This document shows, in pieces, positions 40,987 through 64,000 of a DNA stretch of 64,000 bases (position 1 is its first letter; each line of letters opens with the position of its first letter). The notes under the pieces are model-generated. The model was given only the letters and a program-made list of their open reading frames with translations, searched no databases and was not told the DNA's origin. The stretch comes from a virus. The position numbers and the translations under genes are program-made. The stretch covers positions 2,534 through 66,533 of IMG/VR virus record IMGVR_UViG_3300046777_001709; one strand, 5' to 3'.

Positions 40987-41016
40987 TAGGTCTGCTCCTT
41001 TACTGAAAGTAAATTT

Positions 41017-42100: not shown

Positions 42101-42122
42101 ACTCTGTTATTAAAAAAATAAA

Positions 42123-42799: not shown

Positions 42800-45691
42800 C
42801 TAATTAAAAAAGTATTTAACAACATTAGTTACATCAGTTTCCACTGATTTCATTTGATTAATAAGATTGGAATTAACTAAATCTGGATGAACCCACCAGT
42901 CCTCAAATGTATATTCGTCGTTGAAAGCAACGTCTTTGACTACGAGTTCGTAACCGTAAGATTTCAAAAATCTTCTAGATTTATCTCTATAAGAAGATGT
43001 AATATCTACAGAATGATCATGTTCATATGTGATTACACCAAATCTATACTTTTCAAAAGGAATAGATGTCAGGATCTCAAAAGTTGTTTTAGATGGTTCA
43101 CAATCAACTTGAAGATAATCTATATCTGTTCCAACATTCATTTCATCCAAAAGTTTCTCATAATTAATTCTGGTTGCATCTTTACAAAGAATTTGGTTTT
43201 TTCTTTGTTCAGCAAACATTTTACATAAGTCCTCCTTAATTTCAATAGAAATTCCTTTCCAATGAAATTGTGTTTCTAAAAGAGCGGTATTGTTTTGATA
43301 AAAAGGTTCTTGTGCTCCGATTTCTAGATAAGTCCCTTTACGTTTTCCATTTAAAATTGCAAGAACAAACATATCTTGATATGCTTGAGAATAATTCTTT
43401 TCAATTGTTTCAGAACCAGGGAATTTAAATCTTAATTGATGATGCTTATTTTTATTATACTTAATAATCTCATCAGGTATGTTACCAACACCATAACTCA
43501 TTAATAAGTCTTGAACAGATTTTTCATACTGTTCTGGAAGTTCATAATTATTTTTAATTTCTTGAAGTATTTTTCTAGATTCATTTCCTTTTCCCCACCA
43601 CCAAGCAGCAATTGCTTTCTCATAGAGTAAAGAAAATGTATCAATATACCCTACATTATTTTGTAGTGGAACTAGTTCTTTTTCAGAGAAAGTAATACCT
43701 TGATGGGAAACACTATATGCATCAGTCCATTGTTCACGTTTTCCGTGAAATTTTGCCATTAGAAAATAAGCTTCAGGTCTTGTTGGAAGAAGATTAATTG
43801 CATGTTGGAGAAGTGTTCTAGCGGTACTATCTCTTGTCCCCTGTTTTTCATAACACTGATGTGCCCACAGAAGTGCTTCATACGCGAGTATATCATCTTC
43901 AGATCTTTCAGCAGATCTTAAAAAATAAGAAAGTGCTGGAGCAGTATGACCTTCATTCCAATACCATACACCAAGATTAAAGTTATATTGGGCGTTCTCT
44001 GGATCACTACTATAGTTTGTAAGTAATGTTTCAATTTGATTCATATTTGAATCTTCATTTTTAACAACTTTGAAAGATTTCATTTTATTTTTCCAGTAAT
44101 TAATAACTGTATTATAAGATTCTATGTGTCCATTTTTTTGAGATCCATTTACTTCTTTGTCTTCTTCAGGGGAAAAAGTTGTATTGAATGATATGTCTTC
44201 AACAAATAATGGAATACTATAGCACACATCTTCCAAAGTTTCAAATAAAACATTTTCTAGAAGAGGAGTTAGTACATTTCCAGATCCAGGAAGTTCTAAA
44301 TGAAATTTTTTAGTTCCAAGACAGTAGTTCTCAACTAAAACTCTAGCATAATTTCTAGTGATAATATATGCCGTACCAGCCCAATCATCCCAATACCTTT
44401 TACGAAGATTAAATGTATTGTAATCTTTTCTAATTACTAGAAGTTGTACACAACAAGCATCTTTTGGTATAGAACTAATAAACTCTTCCCAAGTAAAATC
44501 CCAGTACTTAACTGTCTCTAAACTTAAATCATCTTCACAAAAGAAAGCATACTCTTCATCAGTTTCTTCATACCACTTTCGTATTGCTTTTAGATGGGAA
44601 ACAACACATCCAATTGTTCCACCATTCATCTGATCTAAAAACTTTCCAGTAATTTCATCATCAGATTCCGTAAATCTCTTGGATAAAATTGCTGTTGGAG
44701 AAATTCCATATTCGGAAAATTGTCTTTCAATGTTTTCTTGACGATCTTTAGATTCTTCAAGAGAAACATAATAGACTGAAGGAAAATTTTCAAGTTTATT
44801 ATTCATCATTATTTTGTTTGCATAATAGATTTGTTCGTCAATTTGTTGAATATTCCATTGTGTTTGAGGTTCGACATAATAATTATCACTTAATGGTGCT
44901 ATTTTTTTATTATTTTCAATATGTTCTACTGTAAGTATGTATTCTGCATCCCATTGCCTTGTTTTTTCATCATCATCATACAATGAATTTTTAATTTCAT
45001 TAAGTTGTTGTTGACTATAACCTTCAAAGTTTTCTATTCTTTTTTTATCGGAGTGTGGGATATGTAGTATATTATAATCAAAATTTAATTTTTTTTCTTC
45101 TAATCCAAGAACCCTAAGTCGATGAAAAATTTCATCATCTTCATAAGAATAGTATTTACCAAGATTCTCATTGTAACCACCGATTTTTATAAAGTTCTTT
45201 TTAGAAACAAAAAGAAGACCAATCAAGTGTTTAAATATTGGACTATATGAGTTTACATACTCAACAAGTTCCAATAAACTCATATTATTTTTATCTACAA
45301 CATATCCCTCACCATCAAAAACTTCATAATTTTTAATATTATGTTTTCCAGATACAAAACTATTTTCTGTGATCTTATAAGTCTCAAAGAAGTTATAGTA
45401 TGGACTGAAAATATAATCACAGTCAACCTTTAAAATATAATCTCCTGTTGCAATACTTGCAGCAAGGTTAAGAGGTTGTGGTTGATTAAAATATTTTTGA
45501 TCAAGTACAGTAATTACTTTAATCCTTTTGTCTATTTTTGTAAGTGGTGTTAATGATTTCTCAGAACTCCAATCAACAATAATAATTTCAGTAATCTCTG
45601 TTCTTAACAACCAAGAACTAAGTGCAATCTGTAATGGTTCATTTCTATTCTTACAAGCACAAATTAATGAAATTGTCATATAAGTATCCAA
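42800..45691 (-). CDS. multidomain glycan enzyme: GT2/GT7-like + GT25-like + TPR + FkbM-like methyltransferase
   Basis: VDWSS/KVDCD/GGYNE..YSYEDD; VSL..SKDR/GCVVSH/CEDD; TPR helices (PTRPEAY); YSQAYQD/YLEIGA/IDYLQVDCE/FEDWWV. Confidence 0.8.
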   Translation of the reverse strand: MDTYMTISLICACKNRNEPLQIALSSWLLRTEITEIIIVDWSSEKSLTPLTKIDKRIKVITVLDQKYFNQPQPLNLAASIATGDYILKVDCDYIFSPYYNFFETYKITENSFVSGKHNIKNYEVFDGEGYVVDKNNMSLLELVEYVNSYSPIFKHLIGLLFVSKKNFIKIGGYNENLGKYYSYEDDEIFHRLRVLGLEEKKLNFDYNILHIPHSDKKRIENFEGYSQQQLNEIKNSLYDDDEKTRQWDAEYILTVEHIENNKKIAPLSDNYYVEPQTQWNIQQIDEQIYYANKIMMNNKLENFPSVYYVSLEESKDRQENIERQFSEYGISPTAILSKRFTESDDEITGKFLDQMNGGTIGCVVSHLKAIRKWYEETDEEYAFFCEDDLSLETVKYWDFTWEEFISSIPKDACCVQLLVIRKDYNTFNLRKRYWDDWAGTAYIITRNYARVLVENYCLGTKKFHLELPGSGNVLTPLLENVLFETLEDVCYSIPLFVEDISFNTTFSPEEDKEVNGSQKNGHIESYNTVINYWKNKMKSFKVVKNEDSNMNQIETLLTNYSSDPENAQYNFNLGVWYWNEGHTAPALSYFLRSAERSEDDILAYEALLWAHQCYEKQGTRDSTARTLLQHAINLLPTRPEAYFLMAKFHGKREQWTDAYSVSHQGITFSEKELVPLQNNVGYIDTFSLLYEKAIAAWWWGKGNESRKILQEIKNNYELPEQYEKSVQDLLMSYGVGNIPDEIIKYNKNKHHQLRFKFPGSETIEKNYSQAYQDMFVLAILNGKRKGTYLEIGAQEPFYQNNTALLETQFHWKGISIEIKEDLCKMFAEQRKNQILCKDATRINYEKLLDEMNVGTDIDYLQVDCEPSKTTFEILTSIPFEKYRFGVITYEHDHSVDITSSYRDKSRRFLKSYGYELVVKDVAFNDEYTFEDWWVHPDLVNSNLINQMKSVETDVTNVVKYFFN

Positions 45692-46967: not shown

Positions 46968-46968
46968 T

Positions 46969-47943
46969 TTAATTAAAAATAAAGTTATTTACAGTCTTTT
47001 GTGGAATTCTTAGTAGATATGCGGCATTATCTTGAAATCCATATGTGATAATAAAATCATTGTTATATTCAGTAAGACCACAACAAAATTCAATTTTTGC
47101 ATCCATAAAAGAAAACTGGGGAGAAATTTTTACAATATTCCAATTCTTATCCCATAATACAAAACGATGGCGATAAGTTCCATCCTTTTTTCCAGCTTCG
47201 CTATTATAGAGAGATGTTTCATGAACTACACACATTCTATATTCACCGAAAGGAATTACCTGCGATCCCCCTCTAAGATCACCACATCCTAAATCTCTCC
47301 AATTACCCAAAAAAACTTGCTTAGATGATTGAGTTTCTGGATCAACCTTGACAACTTCTGTACCATTAGTCCATTTTACATAATAGTAAGGGAGATCTGT
47401 AACTGGCATCCAGTTTTTCTCACAATAGGAATCTTTATCTACAGGAGTTGGAATACGAAACTGTGATACTTCTTTTACAGTAGTATTATCCAACTCCAGT
47501 TCAGAAAGTTCCATACGACCAGTGCCGATATTATCAAGGTCTCTACGTACACCAGAAACGTATAATTTATCATCCCACCTGACAATACGACAATCCTCTA
47601 ATCCAACAAATTCCCACAATTCTTTATCTGGAAAACTTGATGTGTCTATACGAGAATAGTATTTTATTCTCATATTTTCATCCAATTCGCACAGATAATT
47701 CCAAGTGCGAAGATGCATATCATTTTCGGGATGAATATAAACTAAAGGTCCCCAATGATTTTCATATTTATTTTTTTCTGCATGATAAAGTGTATAGTTA
47801 ATATTTCTTAAATTAACAAGAATTTTACCATTATCATTATATACCGAAGGATTGGTAATAGATGGTCCCATCAACTCATTATTAGGAATAATCAATGGAT
47901 GTATAGAACCACCATTATCAATTGCAAATTTTACAAAATTCAT
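46969..47943 (-). CDS. five-bladed beta-propeller glycosidase-like protein (GH130/GH43-like)
   Basis: NPSV, GLEDCRIV, EKNWMP, LRGGS, IEFCCG, YGFQD. Confidence 0.7.
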   Translation of the reverse strand: MNFVKFAIDNGGSIHPLIIPNNELMGPSITNPSVYNDNGKILVNLRNINYTLYHAEKNKYENHWGPLVYIHPENDMHLRTWNYLCELDENMRIKYYSRIDTSSFPDKELWEFVGLEDCRIVRWDDKLYVSGVRRDLDNIGTGRMELSELELDNTTVKEVSQFRIPTPVDKDSYCEKNWMPVTDLPYYYVKWTNGTEVVKVDPETQSSKQVFLGNWRDLGCGDLRGGSQVIPFGEYRMCVVHETSLYNSEAGKKDGTYRHRFVLWDKNWNIVKISPQFSFMDAKIEFCCGLTEYNNDFIITYGFQDNAAYLLRIPQKTVNNFIFN

Positions 47944-47964
47944 AAGATTTTAAATTATTAAATA

Positions 47965-48321
47965 TTAAGAAAGACTTGCAATATGTTCTTGACACATTAC
48001 AATATCAGATTCAATAGACTCAATCTGTTGTTGTACTGTAAGATAATTTCCTGTTCCTTCTTCAAGAGTTGCTAGATGTGTTTGAAGTTGAGCGAGAATT
48101 TCTTGATTATTATCAATTCTTGCTTGATGCTGTTCAATATCCCATTCTACACTATAAGGTGGTGGTGTTGGATGAGTAATAGTTGCCTCGATTTCAAAAG
48201 CACCACCTTTCTCATCAATCATTGCTTGAACTTGTTCGATAGTATAACCAGTATCATTATTAGGATCAGAAGTCAAATAGTAAAGATGATCCAAAGGTAG
48301 TGTTAGTGTTGTAGTTTTCAT
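47965..48321 (-). CDS. hypothetical coiled-coil protein
   Basis: GGAGG RBS before ATG 48321. Confidence 0.65.
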   Translation of the reverse strand: MKTTTLTLPLDHLYYLTSDPNNDTGYTIEQVQAMIDEKGGAFEIEATITHPTPPPYSVEWDIEQHQARIDNNQEILAQLQTHLATLEEGTGNYLTVQQQIESIESDIVMCQEHIASLS

Positions 48322-49349
48322 TAAAATTTCCTCCAAAGTTCTTTTGAAAATTGTACCCAGTCTTGTACTCTGGTTTCCCAACTATAATATTTATTGGATA
48401 TTTCTACTTGTTGAGTACTATCGAATTCACCATTTCTGTATTCGGTAATGGTTCTTTTAAGTTCTCTCGTAAATCTTTCAATATGTTTTTGGCGATCTGG
48501 AATAAAACCATAATGTCTCGCAAACCCAAGACCAGTTTCGGGTAGGGCAGCAAGATTGGAAGAAAGAACAGAGCAACCAGCACACAATGCTTCAATCATA
48601 CAAATACAGGAAGTCTCCATAAAGTAAGTAGGGTAAGCAAAAATATGAGTATTCAACAGTTGCTCACGAATCTTAGAGTTGTTAGTACGTGTGTGACGAA
48701 CAACTCTCTTATCTTCATTTGCAAGTTTCAAACAATAACGAAGAAACTGCTCTTCTTGTGGATTAATATGTGCATATTCGTAGGTTTGAAGACCTTGCTG
48801 ATATTGGTTCTTTCTTTCATCAGGGTCAATTTCGTGAAAAATATGAAGTTCAAAGTCTTCTTCTGGAATGAGTTTAATACTTTCAAGAAGAATATCCAAA
48901 CCACGAATAGGATTTGAATGGAACATCAATTGCAGTTTTCCTTCTGGTTTCTTATGAACTGGGAATGGTTGTGTTGCATTTTTAAGAACAAAACACTTTT
49001 CCATTGGTAGTTGAAGTCGTTCACCAAATCTTTCATACTGCCAATTAGAAACAAAAACATATGCCTTAAAATGCTTTTGAAACTCTTTATCCAGCAGTCT
49101 TTCGATACCCTCTTCCATATGATGAGGGTGTAACCAGACAATATTAGAACTATCGGGAGATAGAGTATTGTCGCCTGGAATAACTGCCCAGTGCCAATCA
49201 GCAAGGTCAGGAGCAGCAGGAAGAACATAATCCTGCCAGGCACGACCCATAATTTCAGTACCTCCTACTCCATCGGGATTAAGAACTGCTTCCAGAAGAG
49301 GAGGCATATTATTGTGTAAGTATTCTGGTTTTGTGACAACTTTTTTCAT
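48321..49349 (-). CDS. GT-B glycosyltransferase (GT4-like)
   Basis: GGTE, FVSNWQ, RGLDILL, ETSCICMIEALCAG. Confidence 0.85.
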   Translation of the reverse strand: MKKVVTKPEYLHNNMPPLLEAVLNPDGVGGTEIMGRAWQDYVLPAAPDLADWHWAVIPGDNTLSPDSSNIVWLHPHHMEEGIERLLDKEFQKHFKAYVFVSNWQYERFGERLQLPMEKCFVLKNATQPFPVHKKPEGKLQLMFHSNPIRGLDILLESIKLIPEEDFELHIFHEIDPDERKNQYQQGLQTYEYAHINPQEEQFLRYCLKLANEDKRVVRHTRTNNSKIREQLLNTHIFAYPTYFMETSCICMIEALCAGCSVLSSNLAALPETGLGFARHYGFIPDRQKHIERFTRELKRTITEYRNGEFDSTQQVEISNKYYSWETRVQDWVQFSKELWRKF

Positions 49350-50188
49350 AGTACCTCTTTCAAAAAGTTTTCCATTGGTGATTTTTTAAAAATTTCTAGT
49401 CCTTTTTCTGTTTGGGCATCTAGTTCTTCTGGTTTTTTAAGAAGTTTATAAACAGTGTCTACAAAACTATTATAAGTTGAAGTGAATACTGTTCCTTCCA
49501 TATAGTCGGGGAAATCTGTATCTGGATTTCTTTCACAAATTACAGGAACTTTATTCTGGATAAGATGAGTGACTCTTACCATCTCAAAGATTTGATTATC
49601 GTGATTATGTAGGTTAATCACAAGTTTTGCTCTTTTAATTAGTTCATCCCTCGCATCACCATAAGTTGATTGAACTGCAACAAAATTGATATTTTTATTA
49701 TTAGCAAACTGTTTCATAATGTACTCTCTGCGAGGAGAGGGGGAAAGATAAGCAAGAATATCAATGTCCCTTTGTTCTGGTTTATTGCGTTCAAAGTATG
49801 AAATCTCTGGAACATAACCAATCTTAAAATGTTTAATATTTTCTACTCCTGCTTTACGAAGAACATCAACATTTCTCATAGAGTAATCCCATACCTCAAG
49901 ACCACGGTACTTACGACACCATCTTATACATTCTGGTTGGTCTCTCATTTGTTCCAAAGAATATATGATTGTATCTTTTGGAATATCGTGTCTTACTACA
50001 TCAACAGGACAATGGTGCATTCCAAAAACAATGTTTCTTCTATCAGTCTTAAAATCATTGACACTATTAGTTACATCATAACCTAATTTTTGTAGTGAAA
50101 AAAATACTGCTGCCTCAATCTCATGAAAGACTTGTGCATGAACATCAAACCCATTATCTGGCACAATGCGAACTAAATTAAACTTCAT
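49346..50188 (-). CDS. GT-B-like glycosyltransferase
   Basis: LEQ, VWDYS, DIDIL, AKLVINLH, FEMVRV..L. Confidence 0.7.
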   Translation of the reverse strand: MKFNLVRIVPDNGFDVHAQVFHEIEAAVFFSLQKLGYDVTNSVNDFKTDRRNIVFGMHHCPVDVVRHDIPKDTIIYSLEQMRDQPECIRWCRKYRGLEVWDYSMRNVDVLRKAGVENIKHFKIGYVPEISYFERNKPEQRDIDILAYLSPSPRREYIMKQFANNKNINFVAVQSTYGDARDELIKRAKLVINLHNHDNQIFEMVRVTHLIQNKVPVICERNPDTDFPDYMEGTVFTSTYNSFVDTVYKLLKKPEELDAQTEKGLEIFKKSPMENFLKEVL

Positions 50189-51612
50189 TTAATAAACTCC
50201 TCAAAGTTTTTATTAATTTCATTAATAATATTAATATCTTTGGATACAACACCTAAACCGTTACAATGCTTAAAATTTGTTTTTGGTAGATTGATTTCAT
50301 TAAAGAATCTATTCACACCAAACTCTGGATTATCTACCATCGTATCATGCATAAGAATTATACCACCTTCTTTTAAAAATGGAGTCCATTTGTCAAAATC
50401 ATTTTTAACTGATACATAATCGTGCATTCCATCAATATGGAGAATATCAATAGGTTTGTTCCAGATTTTTACTACATCATCAAAATATCCTTTAATAAAG
50501 GTAATATTATTTAATTCTAGTTCTTTTTGCTTTTCTAGTACATAATCATAAGTATTTCTTACCCCAGCAAATGGATCTCCTTCAAAACTATCAATCCCAT
50601 AGATATGTCCTTTTTGGGCAAGTGCAAAACAAAATGTAGAATATCCATAATCCACACCTAAATCAACGACTGTTTCTGGTTCTATTCTACGAACTAACCA
50701 ATCAGCAAATCGTCTATGATCTTTCCAATTAAAGTTATTTTGACTTCCAACTTCAATTAGAATATCAAGTTTATTTTTCACATAAGTGGTTTCATTTTTT
50801 TCAACATCTTCACGATACATTTCTGGCGGATAGTATGTAAAATACCTTTCTAATCCTTGATTATCATATTGATGATGACGACGATAATGGAAGCAGTGTT
50901 GTTTTGGAAGACCTGTTGCCATCCAGAGTTCAAAGCAATATCGATAGTTTTGTAATTCTCTCATCATCGCTTCTAAATCCATATACTCTTCAATTTTTAA
51001 TGGATGTTTAAGTTTACGGATATAATCATTTCGTGCCCACCAAAAGTTTCCTGCATAGTGCTGAACCACGAAATCAAGTTTAATGTCGTGCCTTTCTACC
51101 CAATCAACTCCACAACAATCATATCCTTCATCAAGTTTAGCAATACAATCTTCCCACTTTTCGATATTATAGTATTGCATATAGTGACGCCAATCTTTTA
51201 TTGCGCCAGGAATATGAGTTGAATAAGAACTCATTCCTTTATTGTGGAAATAGAAAACATATCCATCATTGTTTAAACAATGCTCATAAATTTTTTCAAG
51301 AGTTTGTCCTTCATAAAAATTTGGTTGTTCTCCCGTATTTCTCATATCAATAATATTTACAAATGGAAATCTATCATTGATATAACCAGTCACCATTTCA
51401 TTATAAGAATGACCAGTTTTAGAATTATACAGACCAAGTGGAAGAGTGATACACATGTTTATGGTTGCCTTATCAGCAAGACCAGTAGATTTTAACAGAC
51501 TCATCTGTTCATCAACCCACCAAATCCACATATTATTTGTATCTGGAATGAATAGATGATAAAAAACAACAATCATTTTGTTCAATTTTTTTTCGTTTTT
51601 GTAATTCAACAT
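50185..51612 (-). CDS. uncharacterised GT-like domain fused to Methyltransf_24-type SAM methyltransferase
   Basis: YFHNKG/HYAGNFWWA domain; VDLGV..G.S, IDILHIDGMHDY, GGIILMHD. Confidence 0.7.
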   Translation of the reverse strand: MLNYKNEKKLNKMIVVFYHLFIPDTNNMWIWWVDEQMSLLKSTGLADKATINMCITLPLGLYNSKTGHSYNEMVTGYINDRFPFVNIIDMRNTGEQPNFYEGQTLEKIYEHCLNNDGYVFYFHNKGMSSYSTHIPGAIKDWRHYMQYYNIEKWEDCIAKLDEGYDCCGVDWVERHDIKLDFVVQHYAGNFWWARNDYIRKLKHPLKIEEYMDLEAMMRELQNYRYCFELWMATGLPKQHCFHYRRHHQYDNQGLERYFTYYPPEMYREDVEKNETTYVKNKLDILIEVGSQNNFNWKDHRRFADWLVRRIEPETVVDLGVDYGYSTFCFALAQKGHIYGIDSFEGDPFAGVRNTYDYVLEKQKELELNNITFIKGYFDDVVKIWNKPIDILHIDGMHDYVSVKNDFDKWTPFLKEGGIILMHDTMVDNPEFGVNRFFNEINLPKTNFKHCNGLGVVSKDINIINEINKNFEEFIK

Positions 51613-52300
51613 ACAATATGACTCTTAACGTGACCAACAATAATATTAGGATCTACAAATACTTTATGACCTTGCTCTGCAACTCTTTCACAAAAGTATA
51701 AATCTTCTCCCAATGGAAGTTCGTAAGTAACACCATCAATTTCTTGAATGACTTTACCAAGGCTAAACCATGGTCTTTTGAGTGATTCAAAAATACCGGA
51801 CTTTACACACATAAACCCAAGACCAACTCCATAAACCTCAAGTGGTTCACCAAGTTGTTGAAGAATTTGTATTTCTTCTCTCTTCATTGGTTTGAAATCA
51901 TCTTTTTGTCGATGAATCATTGCGTCTGCTCCCTGTGCTTCAAAATAAACAGCAGAAATGACACTCTTATCACTGGAATATAACCTTAAAAACTGCTCTG
52001 GATTCCAGAGAATATCACTATCAATCATAAAAAGTTTGTCGTATGTATATTGACCTTTTCCTGGTGAAGAATTAAAAACTTCTAAATTACGACTTCCAGT
52101 AATAGTTGCTTCTCTAGCATTTGTAACCAAGGAAGCATATTCATTTTGGTAAATCCAAGAAATATTATTTGCTTGAAGTGTATGAATAGTTGAGATTAAA
52201 CACTTTACATAATCAGCACACATTGAGTTTCCTGGTGTTGTGATGACTACATTAAAGTGTGGTAATGTTGCTTGTTGAGGTGAATTGTAATAATTTAACA
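51606..52300 (-). CDS. GT-A-like glycosyltransferase
   Basis: FMIDSD, GLGFMCVK, PWF, GEDLYFC, VGH; start probably MLNYY. Confidence 0.7.
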
Positions 52301-52306
52301 TAAAAT

Positions 52307-53029
52307 TTACAGAATAATCATTTTTTGATGACCGACACGAACTTTTGGATGAACCCAAATATCAAAACCATATTTTTTAAAGTCCTGACACATTGAGATA
52401 TCTTCGGAACAAACATCCTCAAGAATTGTTCCGTCAGGTTTTTGAAGTTGAATCACACGAGGAACAAACCAAGGATAAGGTATTTTCTCATAAACACCTT
52501 TTTTAATCAATATCCACCCAAAACCACAATAGTCCACTTTAAATGGTTCTGTTCTTCTTGCCATATCTTCAACAGTCTCATAACGATTTGAACCCTTTTC
52601 ATAAAGTTCTTGGTCGTTCATAGATTCAACAACGGTGGTTTGATTAGAAAGTGCTCCACCATTTGATTGACAATACCAACCAGCAGAAATATCTTTATTC
52701 ATTTTTAGAAGTTCCATCAAGTCTTCTGTCTTGAAGATGATATCACTATCAATCCACATGATATAGTCATAAGGAACTTTTCCCCTAAAAGGAGTCAGCA
52801 TTGTTCCTGCATAATTATCTGCTTGTAAACAATCAGTTCTGGCATGATTCACCATTGAACTGTATTGTTGAGAGATATAAAAATTAATTCCTTGTTGATT
52901 GAGGTCAAATAAAAGTCTTACAAATTGTGTCATAAAGGTTCCAGAATACATTAATCCTGGAAGACAAAATGCGATTGTTTTTCCTTTAAGACTTGTGTTT
53001 GAAGATTGATTTGTATAATTTAACGGCAT
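52307..53029 (-). CDS. GT-A-like glycosyltransferase (paralogue of previous)
   Basis: WIDSD, GFGWILIK, PWF, SEDISMC, VGHQK. Confidence 0.75.
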   Translation of the reverse strand: MPLNYTNQSSNTSLKGKTIAFCLPGLMYSGTFMTQFVRLLFDLNQQGINFYISQQYSSMVNHARTDCLQADNYAGTMLTPFRGKVPYDYIMWIDSDIIFKTEDLMELLKMNKDISAGWYCQSNGGALSNQTTVVESMNDQELYEKGSNRYETVEDMARRTEPFKVDYCGFGWILIKKGVYEKIPYPWFVPRVIQLQKPDGTILEDVCSEDISMCQDFKKYGFDIWVHPKVRVGHQKMIIL

Positions 53030-53074
53030 GTGTGAAAATCATTTTAAAGTCATTCTACCATATGTATGCGTTTT

Positions 53075-55777
53075 TTACCACCAGGTAATTTTTACATATC
53101 CATCTCCACCATTTCCACCAATTCCAAATTTATTTTGTTCTATAGAGTATCCACCGCCGCCGCCGCCACCTCCTCGGGTGCCGTTCCCTCCATTTCCTGC
53201 TACTGATGCGATTGTTGAGATTGCAGTAAGTATAGTACCACTAGCACCACCAGCAACATAAGTATTATTTCCAAAAGTAAGTTCTGTTAAACTACTAGAC
53301 GAACCAGTTGTTCTTGCAGTCCAAACAATAGCATTTGTTGATGTGGTTAATCCCCCAGTATTGGCGCAGATAACATAAGTAGCATTTCCAAATGTTAAGG
53401 CATTGTTAGTTGATAATCCAGAAGTTCTTAAAGACCAGTTAATTGCATCTGTTGATGCAGATATATATGCACCACCACCAAGGAAATAAGTATTATTCGC
53501 AAAAAGAGATGCAGCAATACCAGCAGTAGTACCAGCAGTTCTTAAAGTCCAAACAATAGCATCTGTTGAAGTGGAAATAATTCCATTATTAGCGGCAACA
53601 ATATAAATACCGTTTCCAAAACTACTCGTACTAATAGTATTAGTACCTGCAATCCCAGAAGTTCTTATAGTCCAGTTAATTGTATCTGTTGATGATCTTA
53701 TTGTTGCTTGAGTACCAGAAACAACATAAGTACTGTTGCCAAACATGAGCGCATTAGCAGTACTTGCGCCAAGACTAGAAGTTCTTAAAGTCCAGTTAAT
53801 TGCATCTGTTGAGGTACCTAAAGATCCACTATTACCAGCAGCAACATAAGTACTGTTTGCAAAGATGAGTGCATTAAATTGTGAAATATTACCAGAAGTT
53901 CTTATAGTCCAATTTATTGCATCTGTTGAGGTACTTAATACACTAGAAGCACCAGTAGCAACATAAGTATTATTTCCAAAAGTAAGAGCACTAACAGCAT
54001 TAGTAGCAAAACCAGCAGTTCTTGTATACCAACTATTTAAACCGGTACTCAAAGCACCTCCGCCACCTCCACCAGAACCATAAGAACCAGTATAAGATCC
54101 AGGAATACCATCACCACCATTTCCACCAGTTTCACTTCCACCATTTGTATAAGTATTTCCATAATAATAAGTAGTCGCACTACCCCCAGGCCTAGTATTC
54201 ATTGCACCACTTCCGCCACCAGTCACTTGGAATCTGTTTGCTTGTGTTGAGTCATTTGAACCAAAACCAGAAGAAAATCCATTACCACCAGCAAGACCAG
54301 CAGAAGTTAAAAGAGGATTGAGTGTGACTGATGCTGCGGGAGCGGCGGTTCCTGATGTAATTGCATTATCACTTGCACCACCACCAGAAGAAGAAGATAA
54401 TGTATAAGTTGCAGTACCTGTTGGAGTGTTTCCAGTCCAAGTGACCGTTGTAGAACCACCAGAAGAACCACCACCAGAAGAATAACCACCAGCAACAAAG
54501 GTGGTTCCATAGGTTAAAGCAAGAATGCCTTGTCCTTGGAAAAGTGAAGTTCTTGAAGTCCAAACAATTGCATTTGTTGAGGTATTTAAGATTCCAGTAT
54601 TACTAGAAGCAACATAAGTACTGTTTGCGAAGATGAGTGCATTAATATTACTAACACCAAAACCAGAAGTTCTTAAAGTCCAATGAATTGTATCTGTTGA
54701 GGTATTTAAGATTCCACTTTGACCAGCAGCAAAATAATTATTGTTCGCAAAGGTGAGTGTACTAATATTATTAGTACCAAAATTAGCAGTTCTTAAAGTC
54801 CAAACAATTGCATCTGTTGATGAACTTAAGAGTCCATTACCACCACTAACGACATAAGTACTGTTTCCGAAAGTGAGTGCATAAATTAAATTAGTAGAAA
54901 AACCAGAAGTTCTTAAAGTCCAAGTGATTGCATCTGTTGAAGTATTTAAGACTCCAAAATTACCACCAGCAATATAAGTATTATTTGCAAAGGTTAGTGC
55001 ATTAATATTAGAAGTAGTACCAGCAGTTCTTAAAGTCCAAACAATTGCATTAGTTGAAGTATTTAATCTCCCACCATTAGCGCCAGCAACATAAGTACTG
55101 TTTCCAAAGGTGAGCGCAAGAATAATATTAGTACCAAAACCAGGAGTTCTTGAAGTCCAAGTGATTGCATCTATTGAGGTACTTAAGACTCCACCAGAAC
55201 CAGCAGCAACATAAAGACTGTTTGCAAAGATGAGTGAGTAAATGATACTAGTAAAAAACTGACTATTTTGTTGTATCCAATTAATACCATCAGTACTGAT
55301 ACTCATACCACGATTGTTTCCACCAAGACCACCAGCACCAGGTGTCACAGTCATCGTAGAAGCATTTCCAAGTTCTCCACGACGAATCAACCAGGCATTA
55401 TAAGCACCTCCACCTCCTCCACCACCAGAACCGATTGTTCCTACGGGTCGTCCTGATGCTCCACCACCTCCAGCACCGATTGCTTCAATATAAAACTGTG
55501 TTGCTGTTGGGGGAATAAAAAATGTTTGTGATACTGGTGTTGTAAACTCTTGAAAACCTTTATATGTTACTGGATCTGTTGATGAGGTTGTTGAAGAGTT
55601 TATGGGTTCCCAGGTTTTTTGATCTGCTTGGACTGCTAAAAATTTTCCAGCATTTCCAGTTGTACTTGGAAGTGTATTATTATCAATATATTGATCAACA
55701 TACTGTCGGTTTACTGCATCAGTTGCATTAGATACTACACTTACACCAGTAACTTTATTGCTGTCTAATGTCGCCAT
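53075..55777 (-). CDS. glycine-rich virion protein with two Asp-box beta-propeller arrays
   Basis: ~40-aa repeat STSTDAIxWTLRTS...ALTFGNxTYVA; ends GDGYVKITWW. Confidence 0.75.
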   Translation of the reverse strand: MATLDSNKVTGVSVVSNATDAVNRQYVDQYIDNNTLPSTTGNAGKFLAVQADQKTWEPINSSTTSSTDPVTYKGFQEFTTPVSQTFFIPPTATQFYIEAIGAGGGGASGRPVGTIGSGGGGGGGAYNAWLIRRGELGNASTMTVTPGAGGLGGNNRGMSISTDGINWIQQNSQFFTSIIYSLIFANSLYVAAGSGGVLSTSIDAITWTSRTPGFGTNIILALTFGNSTYVAGANGGRLNTSTNAIVWTLRTAGTTSNINALTFANNTYIAGGNFGVLNTSTDAITWTLRTSGFSTNLIYALTFGNSTYVVSGGNGLLSSSTDAIVWTLRTANFGTNNISTLTFANNNYFAAGQSGILNTSTDTIHWTLRTSGFGVSNINALIFANSTYVASSNTGILNTSTNAIVWTSRTSLFQGQGILALTYGTTFVAGGYSSGGGSSGGSTTVTWTGNTPTGTATYTLSSSSGGGASDNAITSGTAAPAASVTLNPLLTSAGLAGGNGFSSGFGSNDSTQANRFQVTGGGSGAMNTRPGGSATTYYYGNTYTNGGSETGGNGGDGIPGSYTGSYGSGGGGGGALSTGLNSWYTRTAGFATNAVSALTFGNNTYVATGASSVLSTSTDAINWTIRTSGNISQFNALIFANSTYVAAGNSGSLGTSTDAINWTLRTSSLGASTANALMFGNSTYVVSGTQATIRSSTDTINWTIRTSGIAGTNTISTSSFGNGIYIVAANNGIISTSTDAIVWTLRTAGTTAGIAASLFANNTYFLGGGAYISASTDAINWSLRTSGLSTNNALTFGNATYVICANTGGLTTSTNAIVWTARTTGSSSSLTELTFGNNTYVAGGASGTILTAISTIASVAGNGGNGTRGGGGGGGGYSIEQNKFGIGGNGGDGYVKITWW

Positions 55778-55806
55778 TTACTTCTATTCTCCGTAATGGT
55801 ATTTAT

Positions 55807-57597
55807 TTACCACCAAGTAATTTTAACATAACCATTTCCACCATTACCCCCATTACCAAAAGAAGATCCATTGGTTGCTCCACCACCTCCACCACCTCCA
55901 CGAACTCCATTACCACCGTTTGCTGCAATAGAAACACTTGCTCCACCTCCACCTCCACCATAACCATAAGGAAGTCCAGAGATTGCTACTGCATTTGTTC
56001 CGTTAGTTCCTGATGAAGTTCCCCCAGATGCTGATGTGGTAATTCCATAAACATTAATTGAACCTCCAGAACCACCAGCACTTGAAGTAGAACCAGCACC
56101 ACTTCCACCACCTGTTGGTTGGAATTGATTGGTTTGTGCTGTTGCAGTGATACCCGCACCAATTGCAGATTCATTTCCACCATAAAGACCTGCAGTGGTA
56201 TAAAAAGAACTTGATTGACTTGTAAGTTGTGCTGCTCCTGGTGCTATTACTGAACCACCAGATGCCGTAATTGTATAAGTTCCTCCAGGACCAGACCAAG
56301 ATACTATAGTTTCTGTTCCTGCAGAACCTGTTGCTGCATCTGTAGTTCCTCCTACTCCACCAACACCAGGATTGACTGTGATGTTTGAGGTTACAATTGA
56401 CTTTGGAATGTACCAAGAAGTATAAGAACCTGATGCTCCTCCTTGTCCTGATACTTGTGAGTATGAGGTAGTTAATCTCCCACTAGCACCACCAGCAACA
56501 TAAGTATTATTACCAAAAGTAAGAGCACTAATAGTATTAGTACCAAAACCAGAAGTTCTTAAGGTCCAAGCAATTGTGTTGGTTGATGTATTTAAGACTC
56601 CCAAATAACCACCAGCAACATAAGTATTACCACCATAGGTAATAGCATCAATATCACTAGTAAACCCAGAAGTTCTTAAAGTCCAAACAATTGCGTCTGT
56701 TGAGATACTTAGATATCCATTTTGACCTCCAGCAATGTAAATATTGTTTGCATAAGTAAGAACAAAAATAGAATTAGACCCAAAACCAGAAGTTCTTAAA
56801 GTCCAAGTGATTGCGTCTGTTGAGGTATTTAATTTTCCAGCACCACCAGCAACATAAGTATTATTTCCAAAAGTAAGAGTATTAATATTATTAGCAACAA
56901 TACCAAAACTAGCAGTTCTTAAGGTCCAAGTGATTGCATCTGTTGATGTGTTCAATACTCCACGAGAACCAGCAGCAATATAAAAAGTTGTATAAGTAAG
57001 GGCATTAATATCATCAATAGAAAAACTTGACGTTCTTAAGGTCCAAGTAATTGTGTCTGTTGAAGTGGTTAATCTTCCATTAGTACCACCAGCAAGATAA
57101 GTAGTATCACTATAAGTAAGAGAAAGAATAGCATTAGAACCATGACTTGAAGTTCTTAAGGTCCAAGTGATTGCATCTGCTGATGTATTTAATCTTCCAG
57201 TATTACTAACAGCAATATAAGTATCATTACCAAAAATAAGAGCATTAATATTATCACCAAAACTAGCAGTTCTTATGGTCCAAGTAATTGCTGACTGTGC
57301 TGTGGTTTGTCCGGCACTCCCCCCACCACCAGCACCTACTGCTTCAATATACAAAAGATTTGCATAACTTGGAACATTAAAAGTCTGTTCTCCAGGTGTC
57401 GTAAATTCTTGGTAGTTAGAAACATAATCCCAAGAAAGATTCGTTCCATCAGTTGTTGTAAGAAACTTACCAGTATTTCCAGTTTGCGATGGTAGTTCTT
57501 GAATATTTGCATCTACATAGTTTTTATTAACCACATCAGTCGGTTCAAATATAGATGTAGTAATACCAGAAATAAAATTAGAACCTGCGGTTGTCAT
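55807..57597 (-). CDS. glycine-rich virion protein with one Asp-box beta-propeller array
   Basis: Same N-terminus type (LPSQTGNTGKFL), same repeat, ends GNGYVKITWW. Confidence 0.75.
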   Translation of the reverse strand: MTTAGSNFISGITTSIFEPTDVVNKNYVDANIQELPSQTGNTGKFLTTTDGTNLSWDYVSNYQEFTTPGEQTFNVPSYANLLYIEAVGAGGGGSAGQTTAQSAITWTIRTASFGDNINALIFGNDTYIAVSNTGRLNTSADAITWTLRTSSHGSNAILSLTYSDTTYLAGGTNGRLTTSTDTITWTLRTSSFSIDDINALTYTTFYIAAGSRGVLNTSTDAITWTLRTASFGIVANNINTLTFGNNTYVAGGAGKLNTSTDAITWTLRTSGFGSNSIFVLTYANNIYIAGGQNGYLSISTDAIVWTLRTSGFTSDIDAITYGGNTYVAGGYLGVLNTSTNTIAWTLRTSGFGTNTISALTFGNNTYVAGGASGRLTTSYSQVSGQGGASGSYTSWYIPKSIVTSNITVNPGVGGVGGTTDAATGSAGTETIVSWSGPGGTYTITASGGSVIAPGAAQLTSQSSSFYTTAGLYGGNESAIGAGITATAQTNQFQPTGGGSGAGSTSSAGGSGGSINVYGITTSASGGTSSGTNGTNAVAISGLPYGYGGGGGGASVSIAANGGNGVRGGGGGGGATNGSSFGNGGNGGNGYVKITWW

Positions 57598-57610
57598 TTA
57601 TTTACCCTCC

Positions 57611-60289: not shown

Positions 60290-60290
60290 A

Positions 60291-63200
60291 TCATTTACCC
60301 CCTTCTAATATTTTTTCTAAATCCTTTATTTTTCTATTTTGATCTTTAATTGCTTCAATTAAAAGACCAACAATATTACCATAGGCAACAGATTTAGTTT
60401 CATCACCATAAACAACATCAGGAATAATTTTTTCAACTTCCTGAGCAATTACACCAATTTGATGCTCTCCATTATCTATACGATCATATTCAACTCCACG
60501 AAGAGATAATACCTTATTTAATGCGTTATCAATAGTTTTAATATTTATTTTAAGTTTTTCATCAGAATTTGCAGTTACAGTTCCACCAACAACCATATTT
60601 CCTGTTGATGGGTTAAAAGTTAATTTTGTAGAAGATACATTTATTGTAGATACCGTTCCACTAGTAGTATCATCAAATAGCAGATATCTTGTAGCATTTG
60701 TAGAAGTGTCGTCAACAACACTTATAGATCCTCCACTACCGCCACCACCAGTAATATTAATAGTAGTAATTCCTGAAACTGGTGTGGTAATTGTAGAAAC
60801 TCCCGCACCTCTAAAATCAATTAAGGTAATTCCTACACCTACAATACCCCCAAATGTTGCGATTCCAACTCCACCATTATTGTTTCCTTGAATTCCTTGT
60901 AGTCCTTGTGTACCTTGAGTACCTTGACGACCCTGAAGTCCTTGAATACCTTGAGTACCTTGAGAACCTACAGCACCTTGAGAACCAATAGATCCCTGAG
61001 TGCCTTGAAGACCCTGGAGTCCTTGAAGTCCCTGGAGTCCTTGAGAACCAACAGTACCTTGAGAACCTACAGTACCTTGAGAACCAATGGCACCTTGAGA
61101 ACCTACAGTACCTTGAGTACCCTGAAGTCCTTGAAGTCCTTGAGAACCAACAGTACCTTGAGAACCTACAGTACCTTGAGAACCTACAGCACCTTGAGAA
61201 CCAATAGATCCCTGAGTGCCTTGAAGACCCTGGAGTCCTTGAAGTCCTTGAGAACCAATGGTACCTTGAGAACCTACAGTACCTTGAGAACCAATAGATC
61301 CTTGAGTACCTTGACGACCTTGGAGTCCTTGAAGTCCCTGAAGACCTTGTGATCCAACGGCACCTTGAGAACCTACAGTACCTTGAGCACCAATTGCACC
61401 TTGAGTACCAATGATACCTTGAGATCCGATAGCACCCTGAGATCCTACAGAACCTTGAGCACCAATGGCACCTTGAGAACCAATGGCACCTTGAGAACCT
61501 ACAGTACCTTGAGAACCAATAGATCCCTGAGTACCTTGAATACCTTGAAGAGCCGCGGTAGCAATTGATTCCCACCTAATTCCAGATCCAGTTGATAAAA
61601 GAACTGAAGTAGCGGCACCGACTTGATTATTTACATCATAAAGACCTCCACGAAGTCTTAAATTACCATTTAAATCAACTTTTTGTGTTGGATCTGTAAG
61701 TCCAATACCAATATTTCCACCAAATGGAGCAAGTTCAACAGTACCATTGGCATCTACATCAATGCTTGGAATTCCGGAAACATCATTGACAGAGAAAATA
61801 GAACCAGATGTTAAATTATTGGTAATAGAGAATAACTGTCCAGCAGAACCTTCCCAAGAAAGAGTTCCATTATTTAATGTGTCGTAAGGAACAATATCAA
61901 TTACTGTACCAATTCCAACAGCACCTGTAGAGGGATTAAACTGAAGTTTTGTTGAAGATACATTTGCGGTAGTAACAATACCTGAAGTAACATCATCAAA
62001 TAAAATATATCTTGTTGCATTTGTAGAAGTATCATCAACTAGAGTAAATCCACCATTATTATTTCCTTGGAGTCCCTGGAGTCCTTGAGTACCTTGAAGT
62101 CCCTGTAGACCTTGAAGACCTTGAGTACCCTGAGAACCTACAGTACCTTGAGAACCTACAGTACCTTGAGTACCTTGAAGTCCCTGTAGACCTTGAAGAC
62201 CTTGAGTACCTTGAGTACCTTGTGATCCAATAGTACCTTGAAGTCCCTGTAGACCTTGAAGACCTTGAGTACCTTGAAGTCCCTGTAGACCTTGAAGACC
62301 TTGAGTACCTTGAGTACCTTGTGATCCAATAGTACCTTGAAGTCCCTGTAGACCTTGAAGACCTTGAGTACCCTGAGAACCTACAGTACCTTGAGTACCT
62401 TGAAGTCCCTGTAGACCTTGAAGACCTTGAGTACCCTGAGAACCTACAGTACCTTGAGAACCTACAGTACCTTGAGCACCAATTGCACCTTGAGTACCTT
62501 GAAGTCCCTGGATCCCTTGAGAACCAATAGTACCTTGAACTCCAGGATCTCCTTTGTCACCAGTTCTTGCAAAAGTTATAATTATATCTTCATTATTATC
62601 AAAAGCAACTGCACTTCCAGAAACATAAGAACAAGAAACATCAAAATATCCAGTTTTTTCAGTTACGCTTGAAATTGTAAAGAGTGCAAAATCAGAAGCA
62701 TTTAAACGATTAGAAATGCGGAAGTGACCTTTAATTGTTGAAGTACTATCATCAATTGTTCTTAAGAAAGGTTGTATATCTGTCGAATTATCATCCTGGT
62801 CATCAATATAAAGATTTAAAGCAATTGTAATATTAGAACTATTAAATTTAAGTCTTCCAATTCCAGGATCACTATCAACAGTATTAGTATCAAAAGTATA
62901 GTTAAAAGTAGCACCACCAAAGTTTCCTTCAGCACCTTGAAGACCTTGAGAACCAATAGTTCCTTGAGAACCTACGGTACCTTGAGTACCTTGAAGTCCC
63001 TGTAGACCTTGAAGACCTTGAGTACCCTGAGAACCTACAGTACCTTGAGTACCTTGAAGTCCCTGTAGACCTTGAAGACCTTGAGTACCCTGAGAACCTA
63101 CAGTACCTTGAGTACCTTGAAGTCCCTGTAGACCTTGAAGGCCTTGAGTACCCTGAGAACCTACAGTACCTTGAGTACCTTGAAGTCCCTGTAGACCTTG

Positions 63201-64000
63201 AAGACCTTGAGTACCTTGAGTACCCTGAGAACCTACAGTACCTTGTGATCCAATAGTTCCTTGAGTACCTTGACGACCTTGAAGACCTTGAGTACCCTGA
63301 GAACCTACAGTACCTTGAGTACCTTGAAGACCCTGTAGACCTTGAAGACCTTGAGTACCCTGAGAACCTACAGTACCTTGAGTACCTTGAAGACCCTGTA
63401 GACCTTGAAGACCTTGAGTACCCTGAGAACCTACAGTACCTTGAGTACCTTGAAGACCCTGTAGACCTTGAAGACCTTGAGTACCCTGAGAACCTACAGT
63501 ACCTTGAGTACCTTGAAGACCTTGAGTACCCTGAGAACCTACAGTACCCTGAGAACCTACAGTACCTTGAGTACCTTGAAGTCCCTGTAGACCTTGAAGA
63601 CCTTGAGTACCCTGAGAACCTACAGTACCTTGAGTACCTTGAAGTCCCTGTAGACCTTGAGTACCTTGAAGTCCTTGGGTTCCCTGAAGTCCTTGAGTAC
63701 CCTGAGAACCTACAGTACCCTGAGAACCTACAGTACCTTGAGTACCTTGAAGTCCCTGTAGACCTTGAAGACCTTGAGTACCCTGAGAACCTACAGTACC
63801 TTGAGTACCTTGAAGTCCCTGTAGACCTTGAAGACCTTGAGTACCTTGAAGTCCTTGGGTTCCCTGAAGTCCTTGAGAACCTACAGTACCTTGAGTACCT
63901 TGAAGTCCCTGTAGACCTTGAAGACCTTGAGTACCCTGAGAACCTACAGTACCTTGAGAACCTACAGTACCTTGAGCACCAATTGCACCTTGAGTACCTT
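60291..64000 (-). CDS. collagen-like long tail fibre with C-terminal peptidase S74 chaperone (5' end beyond window, >1230 aa)
   Basis: Frame checked at 60.6, 62.0 and 63.96 kb is the same and open; three (G-X-Y)n blocks; SDEKLKINI...GVIAQEV...VAYGNIVGLLIEAIK. The track reports only the last 101 aa. Confidence 0.88.
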   Translation of the reverse strand, partial: GTQGAIGAQGTVGSQGTVGSQGTQGLQGLQGLQGTQGTVGSQGLQGTQGLQGTQGLQGLQGLQGTQGTVGSQGTQGLQGLQGLQGTQGTVGSQGTVGSQGTQGLQGTQGLQGTQGLQGLQGTQGTVGSQGTQGLQGLQGLQGTQGTVGSQGTVGSQGTQGLQGTQGTVGSQGTQGLQGLQGLQGTQGTVGSQGTQGLQGLQGLQGTQGTVGSQGTQGLQGLQGLQGTQGTVGSQGTQGLQGRQGTQGTIGSQGTVGSQGTQGTQGLQGLQGLQGTQGTVGSQGTQGLQGLQGLQGTQGTVGSQGTQGLQGLQGLQGTQGTVGSQGTQGLQGLQGLQGTQGTVGSQGTIGSQGLQGAEGNFGGATFNYTFDTNTVDSDPGIGRLKFNSSNITIALNLYIDDQDDNSTDIQPFLRTIDDSTSTIKGHFRISNRLNASDFALFTISSVTEKTGYFDVSCSYVSGSAVAFDNNEDIIITFARTGDKGDPGVQGTIGSQGIQGLQGTQGAIGAQGTVGSQGTVGSQGTQGLQGLQGLQGTQGTVGSQGTQGLQGLQGLQGTIGSQGTQGTQGLQGLQGLQGTQGLQGLQGLQGTIGSQGTQGTQGLQGLQGLQGTQGTVGSQGTVGSQGTQGLQGLQGLQGTQGLQGLQGNNNGGFTLVDDTSTNATRYILFDDVTSGIVTTANVSSTKLQFNPSTGAVGIGTVIDIVPYDTLNNGTLSWEGSAGQLFSITNNLTSGSIFSVNDVSGIPSIDVDANGTVELAPFGGNIGIGLTDPTQKVDLNGNLRLRGGLYDVNNQVGAATSVLLSTGSGIRWESIATAALQGIQGTQGSIGSQGTVGSQGAIGSQGAIGAQGSVGSQGAIGSQGIIGTQGAIGAQGTVGSQGAVGSQGLQGLQGLQGRQGTQGSIGSQGTVGSQGTIGSQGLQGLQGLQGTQGSIGSQGAVGSQGTVGSQGTVGSQGLQGLQGTQGTVGSQGAIGSQGTVGSQGTVGSQGLQGLQGLQGLQGTQGSIGSQGAVGSQGTQGIQGLQGRQGTQGTQGLQGIQGNNNGGVGIATFGGIVGVGITLIDFRGAGVSTITTPVSGITTINITGGGGSGGSISVVDDTSTNATRYLLFDDTTSGTVSTINVSSTKLTFNPSTGNMVVGGTVTANSDEKLKINIKTIDNALNKVLSLRGVEYDRIDNGEHQIGVIAQEVEKIIPDVVYGDETKSVAYGNIVGLLIEAIKDQNRKIKDLEKILEGGK
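60885..64000 (-). repeat. three collagen-like repeat blocks (~60885-61550, 62065-62550, 62930-64000)
   Basis: Units GTQ, GLQ, GTV, GSQ; higher-order period of ~63 nt at the right end. Confidence 0.95.

Follow-up and report, generated by a model that had tools for sequence, protein, structure and literature searches.

Cyanophage genomes have been known since 2005 to contain clusters of sugar genes, whose annotation, in the portions of the literature available to us, is still guesswork, with lipopolysaccharide (LPS), cell-wall and DNA modification all having been suggested. What such enzymes act on is the question raised by a 64-kb stretch of DNA (the window, to which coordinates refer unless another sequence is named) that is part of a 66.5-kb viral contig, IMG/VR record IMGVR_UViG_3300046777_001709. 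Its interval 42800-63998 is filled by fourteen minus-strand open reading frames (ORFs), four of them fibre-type genes, followed by ten enzyme or accessory genes. Judged by protein family, the virus encodes its own glycosyltransferases (GTs), and by gene content the array belongs with the sugar-gene clusters of cyanophages. A first-pass annotation, made from the nucleotide sequence without database searches, had proposed that these enzymes glycosylate the adjacent fibres. From the linkage and gene content described below, glycosylation of virion fibres appears to be the best single reading of the locus, narrowly ahead of host envelope remodelling, and we prefer it tentatively, with somewhat less than even confidence.

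Linkage of the enzyme array to fibre genes

The array had been described as a nearly gapless minus-strand run of fibre and then glycan-enzyme genes, and this was confirmed for all 14 ORFs. Their junctions are either overlaps of 1-61 nt as listed (about 1-16 nt with internal ATG starts) or short gaps, the largest of which are 45 nt (53030-53074) and 29 nt (55778-55806). A terminator scan gave 5 candidates, compared with 7.6 expected from shuffled sequences, and none was convincing between the fibre and enzyme genes; the lack of a terminator at this point is weak evidence either way. The T4 late-promoter motif TATAAATA was found at 3 sites (8 expected), none of them useful, and the sole perfect match to the sigma-70 consensus is just past the end of the cluster. 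The continuity from fibre to enzyme genes, with its tiny gaps, terminator-like sites at no more than the shuffled frequency and a consensus promoter only after the cluster, was counted in favour of fibre glycosylation.

Related loci were retrieved from IMG/VR by way of the 596-aa propeller protein (29 loci) and the 475-aa enzyme (46 loci). Where the sequence reaches, gene order is kept: fibre, propeller proteins, two GT-A genes, a fusion of DUF8361 to a methyltransferase (MT), a GT-B-like gene, a GT-B gene and a coiled-coil gene. A variable stretch follows the coiled-coil gene, and then come homologues of three small ORFs (41166-42443 in the window), thyX and phoH. Propeller fibres precede the core enzymes in every related contig with enough upstream sequence. 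Identity to the window is mostly about 70-95% for the enzymes (the DUF8361-MT fusion falls to 53-57% in four loci) and 30-68% for the propeller proteins and fibres. The cluster is composite, consisting of a conserved core of six genes and a variable, low-GC accessory cassette.

A GT-A gene of phrog_1574, the family of both GT-A genes of the core, is also found 0.56-1.75 kb upstream of gp25-gp6 in seven of nine isolates examined, and this position was likewise counted in favour of a virion target. In the remaining two isolates, S-CAM7 is without product names and S-TIM5 differs. Cultured phages with the phrog_1574 GT-A gene include P-SSM2 and S-SSM7, and the 240-aa protein of the window shares about 46% identity with the gene upstream of gp25 in Kyanoviridae. 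In P-SSM2 and S-SCSM2R, genes for 2OG-Fe(II) oxygenases flank or follow the phrog_1574 GT-A gene upstream of gp25, and a 2OG-Fe(II) oxygenase gene is present in the window at 4783-5355 (minus strand), directly downstream of fibre genes. According to the available passages of the S-SCSM2R paper, the virion proteome of that phage includes a prolyl-hydroxylase-like protein and a TolB-like propeller protein. The oxygenase/GT-A pairing, together with these virion proteins, hints that structural proteins may be both hydroxylated and glycosylated.

GC content reaches its minimum for the window in the accessory cassette (0.286-0.300, compared with about 0.34). The genes of this variable stretch, namely the GH130-like and 184-aa genes, GT11, and GT2/GT25/TPR/FkbM genes or fusions, are missing from most related contigs. 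Co-variation of the cassette with fibre type was examined by a Collagen-profile search of 40 contigs, a reading of the fibre upstream of the propellers, and mapping of the cassette. Within the propeller lineage, cassette and collagen-repeat genes are found together in G001 (a complete genome), G003/G015/G020, G017, G018/G019, the L016/L055 contig and the window, and both are absent from G002 (100% complete), G006-G013, G016, G022 and G023. The two states agree in 23 of the 23 rows in which both are known. Contigs without the cassette retain a fibre with the same S74-type C-terminus and no GXY repeats. When three core enzymes were concatenated for a tree (45 of the 46 loci plus the window; L078 was omitted as incomplete), 3 changes were required for the cassette and 2 for collagen.

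A search of IMG/VR with the GH130-like gene gave at least 605 matching stretches, and the best 80 loci were examined. Fifteen were excluded because the 600 bp upstream contained the end of no same-strand ORF of 100 aa or more (9 of the 15 have less than 500 bp of upstream sequence), and the other 65 collapsed to 50 distinct upstream same-strand neighbours, all outside the window lineage. Eight of these neighbours are collagen-repeat fibres, two are further S74-type fibres, and 11 are other tail or virion-structural genes as identified by PHROG. The chance of a collagen gene being the immediate neighbour is about 1%, a rough estimate assuming 2-3 collagen genes per genome (complete genomes carry 0-3 each). 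Collagen is also present in 16 of the 18 GH130-like-positive contigs outside the propeller lineage. The cultured phages carrying the accessory cassette are DSL-LC02, in which the GH130-like gene and two FkbM-type genes are situated between the gene for a collagen-like protein and tail-fibre genes, and S-SCSM2R, in which a GH130-like/FkbM pair stands behind a gene annotated as 'baseplate wedge subunit and tail pin'. The first-pass annotation had named an absence of genomic linkage between cluster and fibres as an outcome that would speak against its proposal; when this was examined, linkage was found to hold, both in the synteny of the core and in the co-variation of cassette and collagen.

Proteins encoded by the array

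The genes of the array and the signals at its boundary are given in Table 1.

Table 1. Genes of the fibre and enzyme array and signals at its downstream boundary, in window coordinates.
Feature	Position	Strand	Assignment and evidence
Collagen-repeat fibre, at least 1235 aa	60291..63998	-	Collagen E 4.9e-116, 379 bits; Peptidase_S74 E 2.2e-15
Fibre-like protein, 892 aa	57611..60289	-	Fibre-type N-terminus, split glycine-rich domain, two propellers, 12 motifs
Fibre-like protein, 596 aa	55807..57597	-	One propeller, 6 motifs; Gly_rich_2-like C-terminal part
Fibre-like protein, 900 aa	53075..55777	-	Two propellers, 12 motifs; Gly_rich_2-like domain
GT-A-type glycosyltransferase, 240 aa	52307..53029	-	phrog_1574
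Paralogous GT-A, 250 aa	51606..52358	-	phrog_1574 E 1.3e-46
Fusion, 475 aa	50185..51612	-	DUF8361 (GT-A fold) and cation-dependent O-methyltransferase (Methyltransf_24 E 7.7e-21)
Protein, 280 aa	49346..50188	-	Weak GT-B-like signal, Glyco_trans_1_2 E 0.015, below Pfam cut-off
GT-B (GT4-like), 342 aa	48321..49349	-	PHROG glycosyltransferase phrog_2170 E 6.6e-20; Pfam GT1 families below cut-off
Small coiled-coil-like protein, 138 aa as listed	47965..48381	-	Last gene of conserved core
GH130-like protein, 324 aa	46969..47943	-	GH130 E 0.018, below Pfam cut-off; first accessory-cassette gene
Methyltransferase-like protein, 184 aa	46413..46967	-	Class I SAM-methyltransferase-like, ESM Atlas only
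GT11 (fucosyltransferase family), 245 aa	45676..46413	-	Pfam PF01531 E 3.2e-30
Fusion, 963 aa	42800..45691	-	GT2 (8-213), GT25 (295-545), TPR-like (about 550-670), divergent FkbM-type (about 740-963)
Boundary signals	42515..42722	-	Perfect TTGACA-N18-TATAAT (42722-42693); stem-loop with T-run (about 42531-42515)

The collagen ORF is open at its 5' end, where the contig ends. It contains 250 GXY triplets in three blocks, mainly GLQ (77), GTQ (54), GSQ (48) and GTV (31), with T (91), L (77) and S (53) in the X position and Q (191) in the Y position. The Peptidase_S74 domain, an intramolecular chaperone, is at the C-terminus (57.1 bits, residues 1145-1197). By its domains the protein fits a phage collagen-like tail fibre with an S74 chaperone, and a location in the virion is predicted. 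The 892-, 596- and 900-aa proteins share a common fibre-type N-terminus and a glycine-rich domain that scores slightly below the Gly_rich_2 cut-off, and residues 42-103 of the 596-aa protein match PHROG tail families. Their propellers are built from a roughly 40-residue, Asp-box-like unit. These proteins had been described as Ser/Thr-rich, and at 27-28% Ser+Thr this is correct, but the richness stems from the Asp-box-like structural repeat. A second collagen-repeat fibre is encoded at 17013-20180 (minus strand); it is 1055 aa long, with 73 GXY triplets (GTQ/GLQ/GLT) and a tail-collar-type C-terminus.

Among the enzymes, the secure calls by family match are GT11, GT2 with GT25, Methyltransf_24, the two phrog_1574 GT-A proteins and the GT4-like GT-B, and the weaker calls are the GH130-like, FkbM, TPR, 280-aa GT-B-like and 184-aa methyltransferase-like assignments. 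The GT11 match (PF01531) scored 105.8 bits against a cut-off of 23.9 and covers profile positions 39-296 of 298. In the 963-aa fusion, GT2, GT25 and Glyco_transf_7C exceed their Pfam cut-offs (for GT25, PF01755, 30.3 bits against 24 over residues 305-454, with phrog_2835 at E 2.3e-50); the TPR match (E 0.0064) and that to FkbM (PF05050, E 0.012, 16.2 bits against 22.7) are below theirs. Across eleven homologues, FkbM passes the cut-off in 3, is slightly below it in 2 and gives no match in 6. PHROG returned glycosyltransferase matches for four proteins beyond the GT2/GT25/GT11 Pfam calls, NCBIfam added nothing above its cut-offs, and single-sequence searches of the PDB with the 963-, 240- and 475-aa proteins gave TPR, B4GalT-fragment and MeT1 matches only.

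The true start of the 250-aa GT-A is likely an internal ATG near 52301, and the 280-aa GT-B-like protein is 76-91% identical in relatives. The 184-aa protein had been labelled a methyltransferase; it is methyltransferase-like in the ESM Atlas, but has no Pfam, PHROG or NCBIfam match. When the GH130 profile was run on nine homologues of the GH130-like protein, 4 gave sub-threshold scores (the best being 23 bits against 26) and 5 gave no match, and a profile of this family found nothing meaningful among PDB sequences. Depositors have named the homologues 'MGP protein' or 'beta-mannosyltransferase'.

The N-terminal domain of the 475-aa fusion had been called GT-like. By family it is DUF8361, and the earlier description survives in the GT-A fold of its predicted model. 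This domain was folded alone, since matches to the methyltransferase domain crowded the fold searches with the whole 475-aa model. The resulting model (pLDDT 84.8, pTM 0.86) had 2bo4 as its best match (Z 11.3, rmsd 4.3, 185 residues), and 50 of the 50 listed matches were GT-A transferases or nucleotidyltransferases. Its invariant residues are G44, E101, Y121, H123, K125, G126, W141 and GNFW at 188-191, and a DxD motif is not among them. The C-terminal domain matches cation-dependent O-methyltransferases, including the sugar O-methyltransferases MeT1 (Z 19.2), SpnH and CalS11; its closest solved relative by sequence is MeT1, from the mycobacterial methylmannose-polysaccharide pathway. DUF8361 (50788-51612 in the window, minus strand) is a virus-rich family with a solo form of about 270 aa and forms of 540 and 815 aa, and is often fused to methyltransferases, its partners being Methyltransf_24, Methyltransf_23/11 and FkbM domains.

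Candidate acceptors of the glycans

The first-pass annotation had seen no membrane anchors among the enzymes, and a hydropathy scan of the ten enzyme and accessory proteins bears this out, with no window compatible with a transmembrane (TM) segment and no value above 1.6. It had also reported no flippase, polymerase or ligase, and these are absent from two complete relatives as well, in which flippase (Polysacc_synt), polymerase/ligase (Wzy_C) and priming transferase (Bac_transf) families each scored 0/2. The enzymes are predicted to be soluble and independent of lipid-carrier export genes in the phage, and host machinery could still serve. A further remark, that there is no nucleotide-sugar synthesis gene, is right for the window but not for its relatives, where gmd, epimerase and NTP-transferase genes are found elsewhere. 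The two complete relatives carry NAD-dependent epimerase/dehydratase genes. G003 has a roughly 12-kb block (gmd, epimerase, GT11, NTP-transferase, GT6, a second epimerase and GT25) directly upstream of psbA and the collagen gene and co-oriented with both. G001 has a second sugar cluster (L082, G001:160000-179900) about 60-80 kb away, beside PstS and SLH-OprB porin genes, with GT25, GT61-like and RXYLT1-like genes, epimerases, an NTP-transferase and a class II aldolase. A glycan capped with a fucose-type sugar is plausible, given the GT11 gene of the window and, in G003, gmd, an epimerase gene and another GT11.

If the fibres are the acceptors, the enzymes would modify freshly synthesised phage fibre proteins in the cytoplasm of the host, where methyl-capped O-linked oligosaccharides would be built stepwise from host- or phage-made nucleotide sugars. 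The core enzymes would modify the propeller adhesins, and the accessory cassette the Thr/Ser of the (GTQ/GSQ)n collagen helices, with the TPR region perhaps holding the protein substrate. The acceptor, the sugars and the type of linkage are inferred here from the observed gene content, folds, synteny and co-occurrence.

Arrangements of this kind have counterparts. BclA of the Bacillus exosporium is a Thr-rich prokaryotic collagen helix that undergoes cytoplasmic O-glycosylation and receives a methylated terminal sugar. Its Thr is in the Y position (GPT), whereas the window fibre has Thr/Ser in X and Gln in Y, and the likeness is one of architecture. On the same basis, the array would work most like the A064R-type machinery of chloroviruses, with its soluble GT-GT-MT fusions. 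In the parts of the chlorovirus literature available to us, capsid glycans are built by A064R, a soluble GT-GT-MT enzyme, and PBCV-1 (A064R, the A061L MT and A111/114R) uses mostly soluble cytoplasmic virus GTs, has GT+GT+MT fusions, and makes glycans with methylated terminal deoxy-sugars. No sequence relationship to PBCV-1 was detected, however, and PBCV-1 is a eukaryotic virus with N-linked glycans on its capsid protein, whereas the proposed acceptors here are phage fibres. Mycobacteriophage-encoded GTs are reported to glycosylate virion proteins (Freeman et al. 2023, as cited in other papers). In those siphoviruses the capsid and tail-tube subunits receive the glycans at their C-termini, in contrast to the collagen and propeller fibres of a myovirus proposed here. 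The only sequence link between the mycobacteriophage genes and the window is a weak methyltransferase similarity.

Cyanophage sugar clusters are conventionally read as 'LPS genes', and that reading would place the enzymes at the inner membrane face, acting on lipid-linked O-antigen, LPS-core or exopolysaccharide intermediates and relying on the host flippase and ligase; the altered surface would block superinfection or the adsorption of progeny to debris. Such envelope remodelling is a serious contender, in our judgement only a little less likely than fibre glycosylation. The clusters of P-SSM2, S-SM2, S-SCSM1 and S-SCSM2R resemble the window array in belonging to T4-like cyanophages, in having many GT2/GT11/GT25/GT4-type transferases and methyltransferases, and in having nucleotide-sugar genes (epimerase, gmd and NTP-transferase, here in relatives only), and function is predicted in both. 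In the source passages available, 24 sugar genes of P-SSM2 were proposed to alter the host cell surface, its LPS alteration being a hypothesis there too, and 22 genes of S-SCSM2R were interpreted likewise. GT25, GT11, GT2 and GT4-like enzymes are LPS/O-antigen families by their Pfam descriptions; S-SM2 and S-SCSM1 carry homologous GT25/GT11/methyltransferase/nucleotide-sugar clusters amid host-like metabolic genes (pstS, phoA, hli and petF); and the second cluster of G001 is near PstS and porin genes, not structural genes. These three points count against fibre glycosylation as well as in favour of the envelope. The gmd, epimerase and NTP-transferase genes of relatives also resemble O-antigen clusters, and fibres and receptor-modifying genes could co-vary, both tracking the host surface glycan. 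A surface target is harder to reconcile with the missing priming phosphoglycosyl transferase, flippase and polymerase/ligase of the two complete relatives, with the lack of a TM segment or obvious anchor, and with the association of the core with fibre genes in every related contig. The TPR fusion and the GT+MT fusions resemble protein-directed viral enzymes, and in several backbones the cassette directly follows collagen or fibre genes, which a host-LPS role does not predict. Whereas the classical clusters are found amid pstS, phoA and hli, the window array continues from fibre genes and has the DUF8361 (GT-A fold)+MT fusion and a GH130-like/TPR-FkbM cassette that co-varies with collagen.

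Two other targets were considered. The product may be a soluble methylated oligo- or polysaccharide, or the acceptors may be host surface proteins (pili, S-layer, porins); in a variant of this, sub-modules would have different targets, and adjacency to fibres would reflect a common hypervariable zone. Consistent with this are the pathway of MeT1, the nearest solved sequence relative of the MT domain, the island-like cassette, with its GC minimum and its content varying between contigs, and the SLH-OprB porin gene beside the second sugar cluster of G001. A plasticity zone leaves unexplained, however, both the perfect collagen/cassette concordance across roughly 20 kb of conserved genes and the strong conservation of the core enzymes, and we judge a mixed or other acceptor unlikely. 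The remaining target is phage DNA, with GTs decorating hydroxymethylated bases for restriction evasion as in T-even phages. Phage GTs are known to glycosylate DNA, a possibility raised for the GTs of S-SCSM2R in the available part of its paper, and a Mom-like gene is present in the window (35185-35775). The likeness to T-even DNA glucosylation ends with the possession of phage-encoded glycosyltransferases: a ThyA-family hydroxymethylase was found in 0/2 complete relatives, the window (a fragment, from the 66.5-kb contig) encodes ThyX only, and there was no Pfam match to the T4 alpha- or beta-glucosyltransferase families at E <= 0.01. GT11, GT25, TPR, FkbM and sugar O-MT domains are not known as DNA-modifying types, and DNA hypermodification is very improbable.

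Several further observations tell against glycosylated fibres. Solubility or peripheral attachment is normal among LPS transferases too, and the flippase and ligase could be supplied by the host. The linkage of core to propellers is inseparable from descent, because all loci are of one lineage. The cassette-collagen association is perfect yet statistically thin: co-occurrence with GTQ-collagen genes, which the first-pass annotation had suggested checking, was seen for the accessory cassette in every row, but there are only 2 independent pairs, both concordant (sign test p 0.5), and cassette and collagen could both track host type. The co-orientation of enzymes with fibres that had been emphasised is present but is weak evidence, being the genome default in a window that is almost entirely minus-strand. 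The abundance of Ser/Thr and the GTQ motif are generic, structural properties, and GTQ/GLQ is seen again in the 17013-20180 fibre, which is encoded more than 20 kb away from the enzymes. Among the 50 neighbours of the GH130-like gene, 29 are without a recognised structural gene (10 glycan enzymes, 5 metabolic or other, 14 unknown), and two GH130-like-positive fragments, G029 and G038, have no collagen. A literature search found no report of a glycosylated cyanophage virion. The S-SCSM2R paper (2025), in its available passages, reads such genes as cell-wall or DNA modification; those passages include no transcriptome, and the ones on the virion proteome do not mention glycosylation. A search for literature on the timing of cyanophage GT expression found nothing relevant, and timing would not discriminate because the GT genes for chlorovirus capsid glycans are early genes, according to the portion of that literature available. 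The proposal of virion glycosylation is partly supported, by the fibre linkage, the predicted soluble enzymes and the lack of export genes in two complete relatives, and is held back by the LPS-type homologous clusters and the few independent events.

Source phage and wider meaning

The source is, by its genes, a fragment of a freshwater T4-like cyanomyovirus related to S-SKS1. This follows from its T4-type genes, its identity to S-SKS1, psbA in its relatives, and the freshwater-only runs. A PHROG scan of 32 upstream ORFs identified gp5-like hub/lysozyme, gp26, gp48, gp53, gp32, gp59 and gp33, as well as an exonuclease, PhoH, ThyX and several tail fibres. The replication block of Synechococcus phage S-SKS1 shares 72.7% DNA identity and the same gene order with the window, psbA-type genes are present in three larger relatives (two of the three 100% complete by CheckV), and the public runs listed as holding window DNA are freshwater metagenomes only. 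There was no RNA run among those listed for window positions 47001-57000. S-SKS1 itself, the closest named relative, was rejected as a carrier of the cluster: the 27.6 kb examined include thyX, phoH and counterparts of the 41166-42443 ORFs, which flank the cluster in the window, but no homologue of any enzyme or propeller gene. A megablast search of the enzyme region against isolate phages gave no match.

Several features outside the array were also seen. At its downstream boundary, the stem-loop with a T-run is about 160 nt after the TTGACA-N18-TATAAT match, and both precede the next ORF start at 42443; they could represent a small transcript or leader, and Rfam returned nothing convincing at 42515-42722. 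A glutamine riboswitch (glnA RNA, RF01739) was detected at 41014-41065 (minus strand; 48.9 bits against a gathering score of 35, E 4.3e-09), within the 710-nt gap from thyX to the ORF at 41166-41522. Adjacent genes for tRNA-Leu(taa) and tRNA-Ile(tat) are located at 14331-14478 (minus strand), in an 820-nt gap amid tail-fibre genes. The Mom-like gene mentioned above, of DNA-modification or HNH type (minus strand; phrog_1384, E 1.2e-35), lies between gp32 and plus-strand baseplate genes.

New here are the composite nature of the cluster, the co-occurrence of cassette and collagen, the GH130-like gene behind fibre genes in other lineages, and two relatives without export genes. More broadly, and with considerable reserve, we suggest that many 'LPS genes' of T4-like cyanophages may be virion-glycosylation genes, in which a soluble GT/MT core would act on Asp-box propeller adhesins and a mobile GH130-like/GT2-GT25-TPR-FkbM cassette, moving with collagen fibres, would coat their (GTQ/GSQ)n helices with a methyl-capped fucose- or mannose-type O-glycan. 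If so, the array would be a phage counterpart of BclA and of chlorovirus capsid glycosylation, with possible effects on host recognition, on stability, or on grazer or immune-type recognition of the particles. It would add new soluble, protein-directed GT/MT enzymes, including DUF8361, and myoviruses of Gram-negative hosts would join the few viruses with their own protein-glycosylation machinery. The view of host range and adsorption would then change for some of the most abundant viruses of lakes and oceans.

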